Assembly (NCBI GenBank): GCA_000182565.2
Contig: KQ257452.1
Length of the DNA: 64,000 bases
Strand: one strand, 5' to 3'
DNA from: Spizellomyces punctatus DAOM BR117
Taxonomy: Eukaryota
In this document: in pieces, positions 15,718-36,361 of the stretch
Numbering within the stretch: position 1 is the stretch's first letter
How the letters are laid out: every line of letters starts with the position of its first letter
Notes under the pieces: model-generated
Told to the model about the DNA's origin: nothing
The model's input: the letters and a program-made list of their open reading frames with translations, nothing else
The model's database searches: none
Made by a program: the position numbers and the translations under genes

Positions 15718-18700
15718 ATGGCCAGCGCAGGCTCGGTCAGAGTCCCCCGTGCTGATGCATCGTCTGGAAAACCGGACGAACCTATAGGCACGCAGAATGG
15801 AGTAAACGTTCCATTGACATGGGAGGAGGAGTTGGCCGAGGACGAACCTCTTGTTCCGACACATAGAAAACCGCAGAGAGCGCCTTCTCCGCCTTTGGAT
15901 AATCTCGTGCCTGATAGGTATGATGCTAGTGTATTATTGTCATTGTGCGTAGCACCCACCCACTCTGGTTCGTAGTGCGTCAGAGACGAGTGGTGCCACA
16001 CATTCTACCTTTCCATCTCACAACACAAATGCGCACTCTAATGTACCCCACGCACCTCCCAGCACCAACGCCCTTTTCCCTCCCTCTCCGGGCCCGACAC
16101 GCTCATCACACGACTCGGCCCGCACAGCCCGCGAGATCAACAACCTATCCGAAACAGCCATCCCAATTGGCGTGGCAACTGGAGAACGGAAGAGTGCCGA
16201 AGTGGATTTGATGAGACGGGATTGGACATGGGGTCCTAGGGGAAAGTTACGCATTGTCAACCAAGAGAATACTATGCAGGAAGAGGGAGAGAAGACTCCT
16301 ATTGATGCGTCCTACCCGCGACCCATGTCATCTCAATCAAGCGGTCACAGTCCTTCTACAATATCTTCGTACTATGCACGACCGACAAGCGTATACAGGG
16401 AATATCTATCAGACACCCCTACTCCATCCATTACCACAACACAAACACTGCGAGATATCTCCCCCCTCCCGGCAATTCCACCCCCTGACGCATTGCAGCC
16501 GAGGGGAACAGTCGCAGGCGTATATTACCCTCCGCGACCGAGACCCAAGGTAGTCGATATTCGGCAACCGAGTAAGGGGGCAAAAAGCAATGTTGTTTTG
16601 AGGGCCAAGAGTCGGATGCGAAGGGTGTTGTTGGGTGGGAGCAAGAAGAAGAAGGAGGGGCAGAAAGTGACCGGGAAGAATCGGATGTCCGTGGCGTCCT
16701 CTGATCAATCTGGGAAGGTGGAATTCGTGAGTCCATCTGCGTCGTCGTCGCCTCGTGAAACTAGAGAGCAAGAGTTGCAAAAGCGGCCTACAGAACAGCC
16801 ACAGCAGCAAGCGCTGCAGCAAGCGCAAATCCCGAATATGTCACCGAATTACACTACATCACCGCATCCTCATGACCCTGCCTTCCGAATGTGGACCGTC
16901 CGCCACCAACCCAGTAGCGGCGCCCCTCTCCTCGTCGTCAAGTCTCCTCTCCTAGGCGAGACACTTTCCAAGGAGCTCGGCCTCGAGTCCTTCAACTCTA
17001 CCCAATCCGAAGGCCCCGAGCATATCCCCTCAAAATATGTACCACCTCCCAGTGAACAAGAACTGATCGTCAAAACCCGCATCTACAACCCACCACAGCA
17101 TGGCCACTTACCGGACGTGAAGGACAACCGCCCGCGATCAATGGCTGGTGCTCAGAGTGGTGCCCAGAGCGAACCCGTTCGTGTTCTCACACATCTTGTT
17201 CCACTTGAGAATGGAAGTAGGTGGAGTTTACCGGCGCGGAAGGAATCGCTTTTAGACGAAGAGGAGAATGCGAATGTGGGTCATACCCCTACTACAGGTG
17301 TAAAGTACACTCCCATCCAAATCGATACGCGACGCTTTACGAGGGAATCAATGATCTCATCAACATCACAGACGGATACCGGTAACACCGCTGAACCGTT
17401 ACATCGGTTGTCTGGTGGACGGATTGGGATGTATGCTTTGGTTGCATCTCCCACTCCGATGTCGCCGAGCCAAAGCGGACCGCAGGTGGTAGATGCTCCT
17501 CTTGTGGCGTCACAGACTGCAATGTTTCCCTGGCGTGAGCGGCCCCCACAGCCTAATGCACGTCCAATAAGAACGCATGGAATGGGTGCTGTATCGGCTG
17601 CTTCGATGGTGGAAAGTGAACGATTGGTGGCGGGCGAGACAAGTTCTCAGGGTGATATCCTTCCTTGTACAGACGCTGACGCTACCGCGCATCTACCTAG
17701 CGGGCTCTGGCAACTGCAAAGGCCTGTAGCCGCTGATGCATTGACCCGTCGAGATGAACGTGGTCTGGAAGACAAGCGGTTTGAGCCAGCTGAAACATCT
17801 TTGCCATTGACATCTTCGGATACATTGGCGGGGAGTGAGGCACCTGTGACTCCAGTCGCATCGGAGATACGGAACTCTACCGTACCTTCTCCGACCACGT
17901 ATCCGGCGAATACTACCGATGGATTGACATACCCGGATGAACAGCGTTCAGAAGAGGAAGAGGAAGATGCAGAGGGGTTCGAGCGCACGGGCACTGTTTC
18001 ACCTTCCATTGCTGGTGCACTAGCTGGGGAGGTATCCCCTGTGTTCATGCGAACCCTGACGTGGGCCCCACGTCTCCCATTACGCGTGGTCAATTCAAAA
18101 GAACCTTTGGATGAGGGAGGCACGGAAGAAAGGGAAGAACCTGTTCTTTCAGATATTCCAATGTGGCCAGCTCCACCTACTTTGGATTCCTCGCCCCCCG
18201 AGTCTGAACAATTTGAGTTCACCGCTCAACCGACCGATGCTGCCACTACCAAGGAAGCAGTCTCTGCAAGTCGATCAAGTGTCGCGCGTTTCAAATCGCG
18301 CGTACGCAGGGTGATGCATAGACATGGTGGTAGACGGAAACCCCCAACGAGCTCTGCTAGGCGGTTCACCTCCTCGGGTATGGCGGGAGTGCGTGCAACG
18401 GGGTCAGTTAAACGTTCGAACCAAGTAGGAGGTGAACAACCGGAACAGATGGCCATGCTACCACCTAGGACGGTATCGATGGTATTAGCCCCGGAAGAGG
18501 ATGGCATGCCACCTGAATCGGAAGGTTCATCACCTAGTTTGTGTGGAATGTCTCGTCATAATCTTCCTTCGCCGCCGCCACCCCCTGTCCGTGTTGATTC
18601 GATGGTTTCGGAACAAGATGCTTTGGGGCCAGCAGTCGGAGGGCTGGATGTGCCTGAGCACGGAGCTCCTGGTATTGTGAATGAAGCGGCCACTAACCTC

Positions 18701-20482
18701 CCTGTGCGTCTTGAGTCGATGGTTTCGGAACAAGATGATTTGGTGCCAGCAATTCGAGGGCCGGATGTGCCGGAACACGGACCTCCTGGTATTGTGAATG
18801 AAGGGGTGCCTAGTACCCCTGTGCGTGCTGATCCTGATAGTGATCGGGCGGAGGAAAAAGTTTCTATGCCGTGTGATGCAGAAATCCAGGATCATGTCAT
18901 GAAATATCATGAAGAGTTGAAGGAGAGTTTGGAGAGAAGACTACAAATTCAATTACCTGAACGGCTTGATTCCCGTGTTGCAGAGAGTTCCAGTACGCCA
19001 GGAGGACCATCATCGTTGAACCAAGTTGCATCATCTCCTCCCCACTCTCGACGCGACGCTCCTGCAAGTCCTTCCACACCCCGGCCCAACCCATCCCAAG
19101 ACATTCCCGACCGCCCAAGTTTCGACAGTTTCAACTCTGGATCAACCGCAACCGTCGTCAATGTGTCAATCACACCCCGACGGGCAGCTTCTCCCGAGCA
19201 AATGCATGAGAAGCATGTTCCGGATGCGCACATGCCAGAGCCAGATACATCGCAGTCTACTGGTGCCGTGAAAGCGACAACAGAAGAAGAATGGAAAGCT
19301 GCCCAAGCGGATCTGTTGGAGCGGATTGCGAAGCATTTGGGTCGAGCTTCTATATCGACACCGACTGGATCACCAGAAAGTGAGAGAAGCCGAGTCCTCG
19401 TCGCTCGACCCATGTCGTTTGTCTCCCAACCCGCAACTTGGGTCTACACAACCAATGATCACATGTTGGACGATTTGTCGAGAATGGCCTCTGCGTCCTC
19501 AGCCCCGTCCCAACCACAGCATACTTGGTCGTATTCCTCATCTGGCTCGTTGTATGGGGGGTTTGAACCTTTGGCAAATTACGTTCCTGAATCGGCTTAT
19601 GGGGAAGTCACGCCGTCGAGTGCCTCGGTCGAGTACCCGCCGCGAGCTGAATCGGTTGGACAAGGGAGTGGAATGCCCATGCAAGCGCCTCAGCACCCGT
19701 GGCCGAATGTACCACCCGTCTACGGTGGCAGAGTAGGTTCCGTGACGGGGTCTGTGACGGGGTCGACTGCGTCGGGGGATACCTTTGGATGCACGCACAG
19801 CGATGGCGGGGAGGCACCGAACGACGTTGCATGGCCTTTGCGAACCGCTTCGAGTGTAGATATGAGCCAAGAAGTACGTCCTGCGAGTGGAGTTGAGTAT
19901 AGTGCGGATGCAATTCCTGTCATGTCCCAGCAACCCGCACGACCTCTGCGGCATCGGCCACCGACACCGGCCTGGCCGAAACCAGAGACATCCGTGCAAG
20001 CCAGCGTTTCATCCCGATCCAGTGTTACCGGAGAAATGGCGGAACATCCTCCTCAGAGATCCGCATCTCCCTGGTCGTTTGTTTCAGGCGCATCGGCCTA
20101 CCTCACCCGCAGTGAACCCCAAGAACACATGGCACCTCTTGGACCGTATTCCCAAGATCCATACCGGGACATGACCTCCCTCCCACATGTCCCTCCTGTC
20201 CCACTCCCGTCCGTCAACACCCACCCCTGGCTCGACCAATCTATCCCTCCTGCAAGATTCAATCCCCCCCGCCCGTGGTCCCTACCTCCCAACCAAACCG
20301 ATAAAAACATGGCAATCCCACCGCGGCATAGCATTCATTCTGGATTCAAAGTCTTGGGCGTTCAGCATGTTGCTGGGGTTTCTGGTGTCGATGATGCTGC
20401 AATTACCGGTGCGCCTTCCAAGAAGGGCAAGGAGAACAAGGGGAGGTGGAGTCGGGTGGTTGAAATTGTTAAAGGGCGATGA
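15718..20482 (+). CDS. Large (~1570 aa) Pro/Ser-rich intrinsically disordered hypothetical protein
   Basis: The 1436-codon ORF 16172-20482 is joined in frame to an upstream exon starting at ATG 15718 through a GT-AG intron (~15918-15975). No globular domain recognised. Confidence 0.75.
18584..18830 (+). repeat. 117-bp (39-aa) in-frame tandem duplication, two full units plus the start of a third
   Basis: CCTGT(C/G)CGT recurs at 18584, 18701 and 18818. Units: PVRVDSMVSEQDALGPAVGGLDVPEHGAPGIVNE and PVRLESMVSEQDDLVPAIRGPDVPEHGPPGIVNE. Confidence 0.9.
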
Positions 20483-29358: not shown

Positions 29359-31351
29359 ATGATGGAGGGCCTGCCAGATTTGCCAGCGTCTGACATTCAC
29401 TCTGACGGAAATACACCGTACATGGAACCATTTTACAACACTTTCCACCCATTGCCGTACGGCGACTTTCGTCAACATGTAAGTGCTGCCGGCCGTCGTT
29501 CGATACCTATAGCTTTGCTTACTTTTTGTTCGCATCTTTACATCTGGGTTCCGACAGGCGTACAATCCGTTCTTTCACAAAACTCGTCGAAAGACGACCA
29601 AAATGCAACTGGAAGTCCTTGAAGCAAATTTCCGTGATAATACAAAACCAGATGCGGAAACCAGACAACTGCTAGCACGTCAATTGAACATGACGCCAAG
29701 AGGCGTGCAAATCTGGTTCCAAAACCGCCGTGCAAAGGAAAAGGCGGCGTTCAAGAAAACTGCAGAGTCCACAAAAGAACAGAGCTCGTCGCCAAATATG
29801 ATGGAGAGTGGGTCCGATTCCGGTGGTGCGGTTTTTGATCCAGGCATCAAGACTTCTCCTCGCAGTGTGGAGGAAAGTCCTCCAAAGATTGGCTCACTCG
29901 GTCAGGTCCAGAGAACACCCCAGTTTGCCGTTGTGCCCCCTCCGTATGAGGGCGCCTATCAATTTCTGGACGATATCGCCGTACCTCCACATCAGGACTC
30001 GCTGCCATTCGACCTTGTCGCGGCCGCCTCTGGATTGATGCCACCCTTTGGGACAGTGGACACCAGTTTAGACGCTGTTGACATTGGTGAACGTGGTCTG
30101 GACACTAGCGGACGCCTGCCACCAAAGACGTCTATGCGCAATCGTGCTGTGTCAATGCCGGAACCATACAAGCCGTACGGCACCTATGAAGAGACGTTGG
30201 CTTCATCCTTACCAAAGGACGAGCAAGTGGACTCTCAACAGAGTGGCCTTCCATTCCATGGCACATCCCTAGAGTACGTCCCACAACCACAACAGTCAGC
30301 GTCTCACATTCCAGAAATCCGACATCCCTCACAATCACCCACTCGTCTGGCCGTCGTTGGCCATGGCCCGCCAAGCACGAATCGCCAGCGAAAACGTGCG
30401 CTCACCATAACCATCCCTGAACGCCCAACACCGGGACCTACTTCCACTTCCACTGCGCCCGCAGGAAGGATTGAGAGCACTCACGCACCTTACAGTGCCG
30501 GGGCTTACGCTCCAGTGTATCGACTACAGCATCCTTCACCATCAGTACTTTCCCCTCATTATTCCGGAGATACGCCCACTTGGAGTGGCGCACGTCGCGG
30601 ATCGTGCCCACCAGAGTTCCTTGCCTCATTTATGAACATGACTATACCATCAACAGATGACGGCAGTACATCGCTAGAAACCCCTCAGCCCTCGCCGTCC
30701 TTGCAACCGATTATGGAGGACTGTACTTATGGACGGTCAAGCGAAATTGCTTATGCAAGTGCATCGCTTACGCCTCCGCAAACCTATGCGGACTGCGAAG
30801 CCAGTGTCGCTGTGGTTCCACAGTATCCCATGACGGCATACCCAAGATTTTACAACAAGGACATGGCATGCCTGGGCCCATGTTACGATTCTTACGGTCA
30901 GAAGCAGCTTCACATTCCCCAAGCGCTACAAGAAACACAGTCCAAGCCTGATGTACAACACTTTCAAAGGCTTAGAATGAATCGGCGGAGTTCTGAGCCA
31001 GTCAATATACTACGACAGCAGCACGTATTACGCGCTAATGCGGGTGCAGAGGTATCTAGCTGGGATTCTGTATACCCGGGATACACGATTGCGATGCCTG
31101 GAGTCCATAAAGGTTATAATTCTGCGGCATATTGGAGTCCGCAAACCGGACGACCGCCATCACAACGAACACTAGCATTTGAGAGCGGGCTGGAAGAGCC
31201 TCATATGTGTGTGGAAGAGAAAATGTTACTGAGTGGGATTAATGATTTTGACAATCTCAGTCCTGTGGTCGGGCAATCACCCACGATACCGTATCCGAGA
31301 TCATTCCCTGTAGAGTTACCGAATGCTGTAGGAGAATTTGTAGAGCAGTAA
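29359..31351 (+). CDS. Homeodomain transcription factor (fungal Phx1-like), one intron
   Basis: YNPFFHKTRRKTTKMQLEVLEANFRDNTKPDAETRQLLARQLNMTPRGVQIWFQNRRAKEK, followed by a long disordered tail. Intron ~29479-29557. Confidence 0.88.
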
Positions 31352-31592
31352 AGCTTTTGTAACTAGGATGGAAGCGACTCAAGAGCGGACTGAACAGTTT
31401 CCTTTTGTTAGTGTTTTTCCTTTATATCTTCTCTGCTTCTACCGGACATTACCTCTTTGTAAATTGGACAGTACCAGGAATTGTACTTTGTATTTTTACT
31501 TTTAGTCTTAACCTTTTTCTTTTGTTCGATTTTTTACAAATGAGACTTTTGAATATATGTTTGAAGAAAGCATACAGTGTAATTCTTATGGT

Positions 31593-34070
31593 TTAATCTG
31601 AGGAACCACCTTCGGCCGCCACAGCGACCTTCTGCCGATGCCCGAAATGCTGAGAATTTTTAAATTCGGCGTATAGTGTGAACAGTACGTGAAGAGATTC
31701 GATGTAGGTGCGGCTTTCCTTGGGTTTCGACTTTTTTTCTTTAAAGACATGTACGGGTATGTCCACCATATTGCAGGCTAGTTGGGCATAGTCGCGCAAA
31801 GACAGGTCGATCTCGGCTGGTGGAACCCGAACCTATTATGATGTGCATGTGTGTGTGTTAGTGTGTGAATCCTGCAATATTGGCTGTTTGGAACAAACCT
31901 CTCCAGCATTGAAGCCTTCCTCGACCGCGTCAGGCCATTGAGCCATCAGCTTCTCGACATCCGGCATTCGCTTAAAGTACTCCACCTTATCCTGTGGCGT
32001 CTGCAAGTGAAGATTGTAAACATTTTGAATCCATTGCGACAAGGCTTTTTGCCCGTCGGGTGCTGATGTTCCCGGACCCAGTTGTATTGACCGGATTTTG
32101 GATGGTGTTAGTTTAGGGGTTGCGGATTCGCTCTTTTGAAGAGCACGAAGACGAAGGTCCAGGACTGGCCGATTTTAGGACGGTGAGTAACGTGTCTTTG
32201 TAAACATTTGTTCACTCGCACAAACATACCAGCCGGATCAGATTGCTGTATATTAGGTTCATCGAGCACTATTGCTCCCAATGACGACAGCTTTTGAGTA
32301 TTCACTGGTTTAGATGGATCATCTGGATATCGCGATGGAGGCGGAATCTGCAGCAGCAAAAACATTGTTTAGATCCCATGAAAAAAAGGTCAAAATGAAA
32401 TGCCTGCAAAACGTACTTTGATGATTGGATCAATGTCACCAATGGACGGCATGTAATCCAGGATAAAACATTTCAGCTCTGGGTTGAGTTCAAACGTTTG
32501 TGGTTCATATCCCGCAATATAAGTGAAAAGCTCTTCCAATTCTGTCTTGAGCGGACCGCCGGAGCTTGATACGGCGGAAGTCTCCGACGTTGAGCGGGTG
32601 GCCTCGGTAAAGATCATGTCTGTATTGCGCAAATGGTCGTCGTCCTGGTCTGTGGGTGGGTAGCCTAAACTATCGGAGCGTGGCGGCCATGGATGCTTTT
32701 CTTTCGGAAGGGGCTGCGGGTCTGCTAGCCCAAAAGTTGTCTGCCTATCATCTTGCATACGTTGAATGATAGCATCGGTGTTGGAATCCTGATATTCATC
32801 CTCTTCTTGGCGAAGCTGGGAACAAGATTGAGATATTATGACATACATTGGGGTAGAAGAAAATGTCCTTTACCGGTTGGTGCCGTTTTGCAGAGCGCCG
32901 CGCACTTTCGGGCCTCATGGCTCTACGTTGTGGAGGTGGTGACTCTGGTTGTGCTTGGATAGTGTCCTGTAGATACTGGGACGACCCTGTAGTCGACTTG
33001 GTATTTTTCGCCATGAGGGCGTTAAATTCTTCGTCACTATCGTCAGGATGATTATCCTCAGGATGCGTTGAGTAGAACGCTGTAGGTTCCGCATCAAGCC
33101 CCATGGAGTTTACATTCACATCTGACATCAGATTTGCGGAAAGGTTTGCTGACGCTGGCACACTTCCTTTCAATGCCGTTGCTCTTGCAGATGCCTGTAC
33201 AATTTGCGTTTTTCATGTCAACTGGTGAGGATCTGGTTCAAAGGCCAAACGCTCTATTCACATTACCTCATCGACTGGTTCGGGTCTCTCCTCTGTCCTC
33301 AAGTCAGATAATCCACCGCTCCTGCTAATTGATTCACGTCGCGGTATACGACCCATAGCCAGATCGTTTTGGCTCATCATTTCGCGCGAAAGGCTGTTTT
33401 GTGTTGCGGCCAGAGGACTTGTTGAGCTGTCGACACCGATTTCGTTCAGCGCTCCTTCTGACTTGGTTGGCAGTTGTCTTCTCAATCCACTGTAGGGTCG
33501 TGTTGGAGGATCTAGTCCAGCTTCAAGATCGCTTTGCAACCTTAAAGGATCGGGAGCAAGTTCCAATGACTTCCGTTCAATCAGCAAAGAATCTTAAACC
33601 CCCATGCAGCGGCCAAGTTTTTGACCGATCACTTAACTCTCCCGGACTCACTTTCTTGCAAATTTTTCATCCTCTTCTATGGCAATTACTCGAGCCAAGA
33701 GCTCATCTTCTGATACTTGATCCTCCAGTTGACGCCTTCGCGCACTAGGAAGGCGGTTGACCCGTGATTGCATGTCTCTAGCAAGAGCTTCATCTGACTG
33801 TTCCATCCGTTGCTTGGATCGACTTGTCATAGGACGACCTCCAAGATCATCAGTTGACCGCCCGCGTGTAGATGTAACGGGACGTTTTCCCTTTTCCGTC
33901 CGTCTGGCATTATCACCTTGGTTGTGGAGCATCGTTCTCTCGAGTGCTTCAATGGCAGCGTCGACGTTATAGTCCACGCGTTGAAGCACTGCAGAGAGAA
34001 TTTCTGGATCCACTAGAGGAAACTGTGCAACGAGACGAGCGAGCGAGAGCTGGTCCTCCTCTTCAGCCAT
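31593..34070 (-). CDS. IFT46: Intraflagellar transport protein 46 with N-terminal CUE domain and MIU-like motifs (multi-exon)
   Basis: IFT46 core: LFTYIAGYEPQ...LKCFILDYMPSIGDIDPIIK, LGAIVLDEP, MPDVEKLMAQWP, IESLHVLFTLYAEFKNSQHF. Upstream exons splice in frame to the CUE-like ORF 33648-34070. The core call is firm; the fusion is less so. Confidence 0.85.
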
Positions 34071-34225: not shown

Positions 34226-36361
34226 ATGAAAGCAAGAAGTTGTCTTGGAGGACGAAAGGCTACCTCTCTTCTCCCTTGCAATAGGCAAAGGCCCTCGGGC
34301 TGCCTGCTTGCTGCAAGTCGTCATAGTCACCTAGGGCGGCAGTCGGTGCTTGCGCGACATGACAGAACTGTCATTCGCCCGTATACAGCCGTCGCCTCCT
34401 TGGCGCCAGTAACGGAAGGTGAGCGGCTACTCCATTACCAACCCAATGTTATATTTGCTCTAAAATCTGCTTCTGATAGCCTCTATAGCTTCTGAAGGTG
34501 GGCAAATGCGACGTTTGAAAAAGATGCAGACCTTGCTCTCGGCTGAGAACTATGATGGCGTTGTGCACGAATTCAAGCGGGCCGCTCACCGTGGAAATGT
34601 TTCCGAGGACTTTTTCGGAGTAGTATTAGAAGCATGTTCGAGATTGGGTGACTTGGAGACGGCCATGCGGTTACTGGAAACAATGAAGCTCAAAGGAATC
34701 CCGCTGTCAACTGACGTCTATACTACTCTGTTGAAGGCAGCTGCTAAAGGTCCAAATGCAGTTGAGAGAGTTGTGAGGCTTTTGACAATCTTGGAGAAGG
34801 AGGCAGGGGATGGATCGTCGCTTACAGAAAACAGTTACCTTGTCGTTGCAAAGACGTTGCTGATGTCGAATGAACGACGCTACGTGAAGGCAGCCCTCAC
34901 AGTTCTAGAGCGCCTGCAGGGGAAGGTGGATAGTACCAAGATCCTGGGTCTGGAGATCTTGGTAAGTCGCTAGTGATACCATGCGTGCGAGATTGGGACT
35001 GAAAAAGCTGAGCACCTACTCTTCAAAAGGCTTTGGGTAACTTGGATGAAGTGGAAGAGCTTTCGTCAAGGATATCATCTGCACCCGACTCCGTGATCAG
35101 TTGTGATTTTTGGGCATATTGCACGATTGCTCTGCACCGATGTACCTCAGTAAAAGACCGCCATGAGAAATGTGTTTCCGCATATTCTGCTTTACTGCAT
35201 GCGATAGACGCGCAGGCAAAAGAGCATACATTTTTCGACCCAGAGCGTCAAGACCTGATTGTCATGGCCACAAGAGCAGTTTTCGACTCCATCCAGACCG
35301 AGGGTAAGCTCGCCGAAGCGCTGACGATACGAAGGCAGGGCCAAGCAGTATTTCGTACCATGTTGATAACCCAGCGGCAGCGTGACCAGCTGTATAAAGA
35401 GCTGGACAGCGGGACGCTACGTGTACTGCGTGCGGCGTTGATTGAATCCCTAACGCGTAGAGAAGCCGCAACATCACGTCGTACACTGCACCAGGAGTGG
35501 ACAACAATTGTGGATAATATGCGATATCGAAGGGTGCTCCAGGATGCAGATGCATGCTATGTGGTGTTGGATCTTCACATCCTTGCCAGCAAAGATGGTC
35601 TGTCTTCGATGGAGAATGCCACGCAATTGTTTGAGGACATGAAAAAAGAGGGACTGCGTCCGAATAGGGAAATATACAACTTGTTGATGCAAGGTTGGGC
35701 GTCAATGGAATCGTTGGATAGTGAGCACAGGCTGCGACAGGTTTTGCAAATCTTTGAAGCTCTACGGCGAGCCGGTCATATACCGGACGTGGGCTCATAT
35801 ACTGCGCTTTTTACCGCTTGTGCTCCGCTGAATGAAGAGATGACCCGCGACGTCACGTCGGGTCAAGCGGCGGCGGTTTTGGAATATGAACTACAAATGC
35901 TGAGAGAAGGCGTTGTTCATGATGCCAAAAGTACTCATGCTATCATTGATGCTCTCCTGGGACTTGGGCAATATGAGGAAGCGACACAGCGTTTCGTGGA
36001 CATGCGACTGACCGGGATTCCAAGAGATCTGGAGTTGTACAATACCATGATTTGGAGATGCAGTTTGGAATCATCAGGAAGGGCGGCTTTGTTTGCAGTG
36101 AAGGATTTATGGTACACGATGCAGCGTGAGGAACATATCACCCCAGATCCGCGAACTTTTGAGGGTTTGATCCGCTGTTGCCAGAGACAGGGCGATGTCG
36201 TTTCAGCGCTTCGGTTGGTCGAAGATATGGGTGTCAGGGGCATTACTCCCGACATTATGATCTATCAGATAGTATTGGATATGATGGAGCCGTGGGGGGA
36301 TTTAGTCGCTTGTGAACGAACTACTATATTGAAATGTATCGCTCAGAATGGCAAAGTTTAA
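34226..36361 (+). CDS. Pentatricopeptide-repeat protein (probably mitochondrial), multi-exon
   Basis: PPR motifs: LETMKLKGIPLSTDVYTTLLKA, FEDMKKEGLRPNREIYNLLMQG, PDPRTFEGLIRCC, MGVRGITPDIMIYQIVL. Arg/Ser-rich N-terminus. Confidence 0.85.

Follow-up and report, generated by a model that had tools for sequence, protein, structure and literature searches.

How proteins tagged with ubiquitin are handed over to intraflagellar transport (IFT) for removal from a cilium is only partly understood, and the known readers of the tag are accessory adaptors (PMC7590530, excerpt). A locus in the chytrid Spizellomyces punctatus DAOM BR117 raises the question of whether a flagellated lineage carries such a reader within the polypeptide of an IFT subunit. 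The window is a stretch of 64,000 nucleotides from contig KQ257452.1 (assembly GCA_000182565.2), and the gene in question lies on its minus strand at 31593..34070. From the letters alone, the original prediction had taken this gene for IFT46, a subunit of the IFT-B1 core, fused to an N-terminal CUE domain and to three helical segments resembling the motif interacting with ubiquitin (MIU). The analysis reported here upholds this architecture, which is conserved among relatives, but not the identity given to the gene: S. punctatus has a canonical IFT46 elsewhere, and the locus belongs to a separate group of fungal paralogues. Its interest lies in a core IFT-B fold covalently joined to modules of ubiquitin-binding type across several chytrid orders, and in an IFT-B core subunit that appears to have been duplicated and re-headed early in fungal evolution. 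The reading put forward, with a probability of roughly one in two, is that the locus is one gene whose product, an ancient IFT46 paralogue, would couple ubiquitin-marked proteins to IFT52-containing complexes as an alternative subunit or adaptor.

Architecture of the encoded protein

Seven exons, interrupted by six introns, join to 2037 bases with a frame that is open for 678 codons and a lone stop at its end (TAA at 31595-31593). The start ATG at 34070 has an in-frame TAA two codons 5' of it, and GT..AG borders are present at all six introns. The three introns nearest the start had been placed exactly by the original prediction, with the frame open across them; three more follow. The 678-residue model is identical letter for letter to a public protein of the same strain, P0167 (SPPG_01975), which carries the name uncharacterized protein and, in UniRef, CUE domain-containing protein. 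The gene model and this automatic name are already public. In literature searches, neither an IFT46 paralogue nor an architecture joining CUE/MIU to IFT46 was found described, and nothing was found for SPPG_01975; IFT46, CUE and ubiquitin are all absent from the main text of a 2026 atlas that covers fungal flagellar proteins (PMC13358043).

In a Pfam scan run exon by exon, exon 1 matches the CUE family (PF02845) with 26.9 bits against a cut-off of 21.1 (E 3.8e-6, aa 17-43), in agreement with the original prediction, which had noted a CUE-like domain with the FP motif. Relatives fall on both sides of this cut-off: P0169 (30.6 bits), P0077 (23.9) and P0008 (21.9) exceed it, and P0076 (20.7), P0013 (19.7) and P0007 (12.8) lie below. 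AlphaFold2, run on exon 1 with 15 relatives (mean predicted local distance difference test, pLDDT, 73; disordered stretch at aa 50-77), predicts helices at aa 2-16, 22-31 and 36-53 with pLDDT 75-85, that is, a UBA-like three-helix bundle. A Foldseek search ranks the CUE domains of SMARCAD1, Tollip and CUEDC1 at the top and many UBA domains behind them; compared with SMARCAD1 CUE1, the root-mean-square deviation is 1.0 A over 44 columns and the template modelling score to the target is 0.77. In the ESM Atlas, aa 1-150 score 0.76 and 0.75 to UBA_4 and UBA clusters, under the hit level of the tool. Typical ubiquitin-binding CUE domains share the consensus M-F-P and a di-leucine (L-L); here the residue ahead of F17 is Q, and A-L stands at the di-leucine position. 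Among the ubiquitin-contact positions, F17-P18 is kept in 7 of the 24 rows of group A, the clade of IFT46 homologues to which the gene belongs (see below), the other rows being mostly N-terminally shorter models. Searched against a representative protein library, exon 1 found no donor protein for the N-terminal module. Four matches reached E <= 0.001, three of them N-termini of the Rhizophlyctis type; the remaining one, P0078, is a repetitive protein of 2081 aa and appears to be a spurious match.

The CUE bundle is followed by two helices that carry three motifs, all present where they had been proposed: SDEALARDMQ (D93-Q101), EDELLARVIA (E121-A130) and EDEKFARK/LQ (E133-Q142). Motifs 2 and 3 share one continuous helix, and since intron 1 splits the codon of K140, motif 3 is complete only after splicing, which had likewise been foreseen. 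The AlphaFold2 model of exon 1 contains long helices at aa 83-105 and 110-138; in the full-length model, one predicted helix (aa 110-146, block pLDDT 85-92) runs across the junction of exons 1 and 2. An MIU combines, on one helix, an acidic run, a hydrophobic residue, a central Ala and L-Q at +3/+4. Motif 1 (L-A97-R-D-M-Q) and motif 3 (F-A138-R-K-L-Q) show this pattern, and all the motifs lie in confidently predicted helices. Motif 1 is kept in Gaertneriomyces, Rhizophlyctis and Borealophlyctis. All 11 aligned group-A proteins share A126 and A138 as well as the D, E and D that surround these.

When a helix profile built from these 11 proteins was searched against 177,635 distinct PDB sequences, three matches were obtained at E <= 10. 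The best two are entries of the Rabex-5 MIU with ubiquitin, 2c7m/2c7n (E 0.032) and 2fid/2fif (E 0.044), which are aligned over QEDWELAERLQREEEEAFA in such a way that the Ala residues coincide; an unrelated lyase (E 1.3) comes third. Exon 1 alone retrieved from the PDB sequences only RNF168 fragments with MIU1, at a non-significant E of about 4.5. The only Pfam family that recurs on the helices is CCDC50_N, weak and under the cut-off in exon 1 (E 0.013, aa 81-138) and matched by six of the 11 group-A members (best E 0.001; 16-18 bits against a cut-off of 27). A ubiquitin-interacting motif (UIM, PF02809) in forward orientation was found in one of the 11 members, at E 0.22, and none of the central Ala residues has a Ser at +4. 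Rabex-5 is the protein on which the MIU was defined; compared with the UIM, this motif binds ubiquitin the other way round (PMC2699339, excerpt). Judged by form and conservation, the motifs appear to be of the MIU type, with database support that is specific but borderline. The CUE and motif features are more than chance, for they are kept in relatives from several chytrid orders.

Beyond the helices, exons 2 and 3 match nothing in Pfam, and the linker, which is encoded by exons 2-4, shows short islands of conservation in the alignment (RPYSxLR..KSEGALN, RSGGxxDL and ARxTALKGS). The IFT46 core expected downstream is present: IFT46_B_C (PF12317; cut-off 22.2 bits) matches on exons 4-7, with 55.2 bits on exon 4, 47.5 on exon 6 and 54.0 on exon 7; for P0001, a near-identical protein, the full-length score is 207 bits. 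Searched in full, the protein aligns with Chlamydomonas IFT46 (8bd7_D) over aa 430-668 at E 6.9e-39 and with 4uzz_A, a chain of the IFT46 C-terminus, at E 1.9e-23. Across 45 canonical rows, 94 columns reach a conservation of 80% or more; 77 of these are kept in the window protein and 66 in the core of group A, and only one fixed difference was found. So well conserved a tail suggests that the protein still binds the partners of IFT46, chiefly the C-terminus of IFT52.

Evidence for a single gene

Whether the CUE frame and the IFT46-like frame form one gene is answered by comparison, which argues strongly for the fusion, and not by RNA. The fused order of parts is independently predicted in at least seven further proteins: P0001 of S. 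sp. 'palustris' (683 aa, 93% identical in exon 1), P0169 of Gaertneriomyces and P0008 of a Lobulomycetales metagenome-assembled genome (each with IFT46_B_C behind the CUE match given above), P0013 of Rhizophlyctis, P0007 of Cladochytrium, P0011 of Clydaea and the JGI protein P0012. The two Spizellomyces proteins are similar to an even degree over their length, with 92.8, 95.7, 89.7, 89.5 and 92.5% identity in the five regions compared. In exon 2, the 53 residues of aa 141-193 (LQSDLEAGLDPPTRPYSGLR...KSEGALN) are conserved in Geranomyces, Gaertneriomyces, Thoreauomyces, Borealophlyctis, Quaeritorhiza and Cladochytrium; as the frame contains no ATG from its stop codon within intron 1 up to M194, translation of this conserved stretch needs a splice from exon 1. 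The exon-1 boundary ...ARK recurs in proteins of the Rhizophlyctis type, in that P0077 ends ...ERIARK and P0076 reads through the intron at that point, and the shared break point argues for a conserved intron position.

The RNA data reach mainly the other end of the gene. Runs X1-X3 yielded unspliced contigs running through the introns, and are therefore DNA-like and uninformative. Run X6, which carries the same species label and is strongly 3'-biased, has a sense-strand depth of 33-37 over 31542-31769 and of 0.2-0.6 upstream of 32000. Three spliced X6 reads on the gene strand (31829->31896, cut +3) support intron 6, the sole intron confirmed by RNA.

Relation to the canonical IFT46

The canonical IFT46 of S. 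punctatus is SPPG_03830 (P0083, 403 aa), which lies on another contig, was found by a search with a canonical-type chytrid IFT46, has the usual acidic N-terminus and is named IFT46 homologue in UniRef. It is 50.7% identical to Branchiostoma IFT46, against 42.2% for the window protein. A 403-aa canonical counterpart is also present in S. 'palustris', and the two types are likewise paired in Rhizophlyctis rosea, Borealophlyctis, Geranomyces variabilis and Polychytrium. A maximum-likelihood tree was computed from IFT46 domains cut out with phmmer (69 rows, 251 columns); the rows were chosen by hand from two homologue searches, most of the 1296 hits of one being left out, and support is given as ultrafast bootstrap / Shimodaira-Hasegawa-like approximate likelihood ratio test. 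Fungal rows come together at 100/99, group A (24 rows) at 93/83 and its 15-row core at 85/92. Within group A, the window gene belongs to a clade of Spizellomycetales (100/99), and SPPG_03830 belongs to the canonical, or group-B, clade of the same order (97/94).

Group A spans several chytrid orders, and its members have a CUE domain and/or MIU-like motifs in place of the canonical N-terminal motif. The pattern NN[YF][YF]DE, defined in this analysis as a proxy for the canonical acidic N-terminus, occurs in 16 of 32 fungal rows outside group A (group B) and in none of the 24 rows within it, the window protein included. A CUE match at E <= 0.1 was found in four of 35 IFT46 homologues scanned, all four in group A, and in none of the 40 remaining long homologues (animals, protists and one further Chytriomyces protein, P0026). 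This survey of architectures supported the fused form, in several chytrid orders, and confined the CUE domain to fungal group A among the 75 long homologues. An N-terminal stretch of the form 'RPxTxRT...DDExLA...EEDxKIAxKLQxD' is shared by Terramyces, Boothiomyces and Synchytrium and, more loosely, by Allomyces and Blastocladiella; it was not seen in Orpinomyces. Given that the canonical SPPG_03830 has been kept and that the two proteins fall in separate clades, the locus is, on the evidence of the tree and the paired genes, not the orthologue of IFT46 but a separate fungal paralogue, correctly worded as an IFT46 paralogue with an N-terminal module of ubiquitin-binding type.

Some further observations were made on the two types. 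Among the matches listed, only canonical-type IFT46 is found for the Chytridiales (Chytriomyces, Podochytrium, Obelidium and others), Batrachochytrium and Homolaphlyctis, which may reflect loss of the group-A gene or missing gene models. In Polychytrium, the group-A protein P0009 and the canonical P0042 are both reported on a 757,023-base contig, so that the paralogues may be linked there. Several IFT46-type models elsewhere (P0008, P0021, P0052 and P0070) have unrelated extra domains, namely a MutL-type tail, an XPG nuclease head, an RRM tail and a Vps54 head; these are probably merged neighbouring genes and not real fusions.

The features of the gene and of its surroundings are collected in Table 1. 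The neighbouring genes are ordinary. A homeobox gene converges on the 3' end of the IFT46-like gene, and RNA reads of both strands overlap at the 3' ends of the two genes (31428-31655). A Boothiomyces JEL0866 model, P0054 (1121 aa), has a weak Homeodomain match (E 6e-4) ahead of its IFT46-like domain, which hints that the homeobox neighbour is conserved or that the model merges two genes. On the other side, a gene with pentatricopeptide repeats (PPR) is divergent from the 5' end; the two coding starts lie about 390 bases apart, and this gap is likely a shared promoter region. The window also holds an open frame of 1509 aa that has no Pfam family at E <= 1e-4, and ubiquitin is not encoded among the 30 long frames scanned in it.

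Table 1. Position of the IFT46-like gene, its parts and neighbouring genes in the window (numbering from the first letter of the stretch).
Feature	Coordinates	Strand	Description and basis
CUE domain	33912..34067	-	aa 2-53; three-helix bundle, 'FP' motif at F17-P18; Pfam, AlphaFold2, Foldseek
Helix with MIU-like motif 1	33756..33824	-	aa 83-105; SDEALARDMQ, central A97; AlphaFold2, block pLDDT 80-86
Long helix, exon-1 part	33652..33743	-	aa 110-139 and two bases of K140; motif 2 (EDELLARVIA, A126) and first half of motif 3 (EDEKFAR, A138)
Long helix, exon-2 part	33522..33540	-	last base of K140, LQSDLE, to aa 146; completes motif 3 (ARKLQ)
Linker, mostly disordered	32558..33521	-	aa 147-424, exons 2-4; pLDDT < 50 over most of 153-424
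IFT46 C-terminal domain	31626..32557	-	aa 425-668, exons 4-7; Pfam IFT46_B_C
Exons 1-7	34070-33652, 33540-33267, 33194-32874, 32815-32417, 32347-32230, 32164-31899, 31832-31593	-	joined model
Intron 1	33541..33651	-	111 nt, phase 2; interrupts the K140 codon within MIU-like motif 3
Intron 2	33266-33195	-	72 nt, phase 0
Intron 3	32873-32816	-	58 nt
Introns 4, 5, 6	32416-32348, 32229-32165, 31898-31833	-	69, 65, 66 nt
Homeobox gene	29513-31351	+	convergent neighbour
PPR-repeat gene	34464-36361	+	divergent neighbour
Open frame	15953-20482	+	1509 aa

Proposed role, alternatives and known systems

The role proposed here for the paralogue follows from its parts. The IFT46 domain most likely still pairs with the IFT52 C-terminus, which would give the protein entry into IFT-B-type complexes. 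At the other end, the acidic N-terminus that recruits ODA16 would have been swapped for the CUE bundle and two helices with three MIU-type motifs; by analogy with such modules elsewhere, which grip the Ile44 patch of ubiquitin, these would bind ubiquitin. Ubiquitin-marked proteins or ubiquitin chains could in this way be coupled to IFT52-containing complexes, for use, for example, in the removal or turnover of flagellar proteins in zoospores. Two ubiquitin-binding elements on a single helix can suit K63 chains (PMC5824887, excerpt). A more elaborate form of this proposal, tentative and rather improbable as a whole, would give zoosporic fungi two versions of IFT-B: the canonical IFT46 would import dynein arms via ODA16, and the IFT46-like protein would put a CUE and tandem-MIU module on the train, exporting ubiquitin-marked (perhaps K63-chain) axonemal or membrane proteins without a separate adaptor during flagellar remodelling or retraction. 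On this view the duplication would be at least as old as the common ancestor of Chytridiomycota, and possibly as old as that of Blastocladiomycota. S. punctatus is listed as genetically transformable (PMC7213984), so a direct test is possible in the organism itself.

Much the same sequence evidence would serve a protein that works off the train, as an adaptor or decoy whose partners, IFT52 or free IFT-B1 sub-complexes, would be bound at the basal body or within the cell body; it would not read cargo on moving trains. Either these partners or material from the retracted flagellum might then be passed on to the endosomal or the ubiquitin-proteasome system. Another possibility is that coupled mono-ubiquitination, acting through the CUE and MIU-like motifs, controls the paralogue itself. 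Since the canonical IFT46 has been kept, trains do not need the group-A copy; a disordered linker of 270 aa is typical of adaptors; and the proteasome is reported to carry out at least part of the degradation of the internalised flagellum in chytrids (PMC8887899, excerpt, citing Venard et al. 2020). The high conservation of the IFT46 domain, however, fits full incorporation into IFT-B equally well, and an off-train role is considered somewhat unlikely.

Several observations weigh against a ubiquitin reader coupled to IFT52 complexes, and those that concern the N-terminal module would suit a different function for it. Foldseek gave no match at E <= 0.001, all E values being above 0.1, and in the structure that matches best, SMARCAD1 CUE1, the bound partner is KAP1 and not ubiquitin. 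Support for the MIU assignment is borderline in each of the Rabex-5, RNF168 and CCDC50_N comparisons given above. Motif 2 (L-A126-R-V-I-A) has I-A where the canonical MIU has L-Q and departs from it at +4; the corresponding L240 and Q241 are termed highly conserved in the canonical MIU (PMC5824887, excerpt). Taken with the QFP and A-L of the CUE domain, these points would fit a module that makes another protein contact or a coiled-coil dimer, in a non-ubiquitin cargo adaptor standing in for ODA16. On the other hand, three independent signals of ubiquitin-binding type lie within 150 residues and are conserved across orders, and the unbiased PDB profile search ranked the founding MIU-ubiquitin structures first; a function unrelated to ubiquitin is quite unlikely.

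The remaining adverse points concern the tail, the tree and the gene model. AlphaFold2 models the IFT46 domain with low confidence (block pLDDT about 40-70), and, as the tree tool warned, the long branches in group A (Blastocladiomycota, Synchytrium, Orpinomyces and Terramyces/Boothiomyces) may stand in the wrong place. No reads joining exons 1 and 2 were found in X6, which, given its 3' bias and low upstream depth, neither confirms nor denies that junction. At the same locus, a 485-aa variant without the CUE domain and MIU-like motifs is annotated (P0002, aa 194-678, starting at M194, the first Met of exon 2, at 33380). This is the form expected from retention of intron 1 or from an internal start, and a shorter product of either kind may exist, in which case the cell might make headed and headless forms. 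That predictors wrongly merged a CUE frame with a separate, neighbouring IFT46-like gene would agree with the missing junction reads, the headless variant and one Rhizophlyctis rosea assembly that splits the parts into P0077 (143 aa) and P0010 (397 aa) on one 45,536-base contig, but it is highly improbable and was rejected in view of a conserved coding exon 2 without a start codon before M194, the fused relatives, a conserved and confidently predicted helix that crosses the junction with motif 3, and a gap of only 111 bases between parts whose frame is kept across three introns.

The preferred reading, a ubiquitin-binding IFT46 paralogue, can be set beside known systems part by part. Compared with IFT46 itself, the C-terminal domain is clearly homologous; the window protein is about twice as long, lacks NNYYDE, and has in addition the CUE domain, the MIU-like motifs and the long disordered linker. 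A link between the acidic N-terminus of Chlamydomonas IFT46 and ODA16 appears in the reference list of PMC7590530. The CUE bundle differs from typical CUE domains, as represented by Tollip, CUEDC1 and SMARCAD1 CUE1, in having QFP for MFP and A-L for the di-leucine. The MIU-like motifs resemble the MIU of Rabex-5/RABGEF1 (2c7m, 2c7n, 2fid, 2fif) in their single helix, acidic run, hydrophobic residue, central Ala and L/M-Q three to four residues on, the invariant chytrid Ala being aligned with that of 'ELAERLQ' in Rabex-5; unlike Rabex-5, the chytrid protein has three such motifs, two of them on one long helix, and no A20-type zinc finger. Tandem MIU-type motifs on helices that come after basic stretches are also found in the UDM1 module of RNF168 (UMI-MIU1) and in the N-terminus of CCDC50/Ymer, and 'SDEELARKLS' of RNF168 was aligned, without significance, to the chytrid 'SEDELLARVIA'; the proteins are otherwise unrelated.

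The closest functional parallel is ubiquitin-linked export from cilia. Ubiquitin marks ciliary proteins for IFT-dependent removal, ubiquitinated G-protein-coupled receptors are removed via IFT27 and the BBSome, and in Chlamydomonas IFT components interact with ubiquitinated alpha-tubulin during disassembly (PMC7590530, excerpt). The logic proposed for the chytrid paralogue is the same, but its construction is not: in the known cases the reader is an accessory adaptor or is undefined, whereas in the chytrid protein the candidate ubiquitin-binding modules are part of the same polypeptide as the IFT-B core fold.

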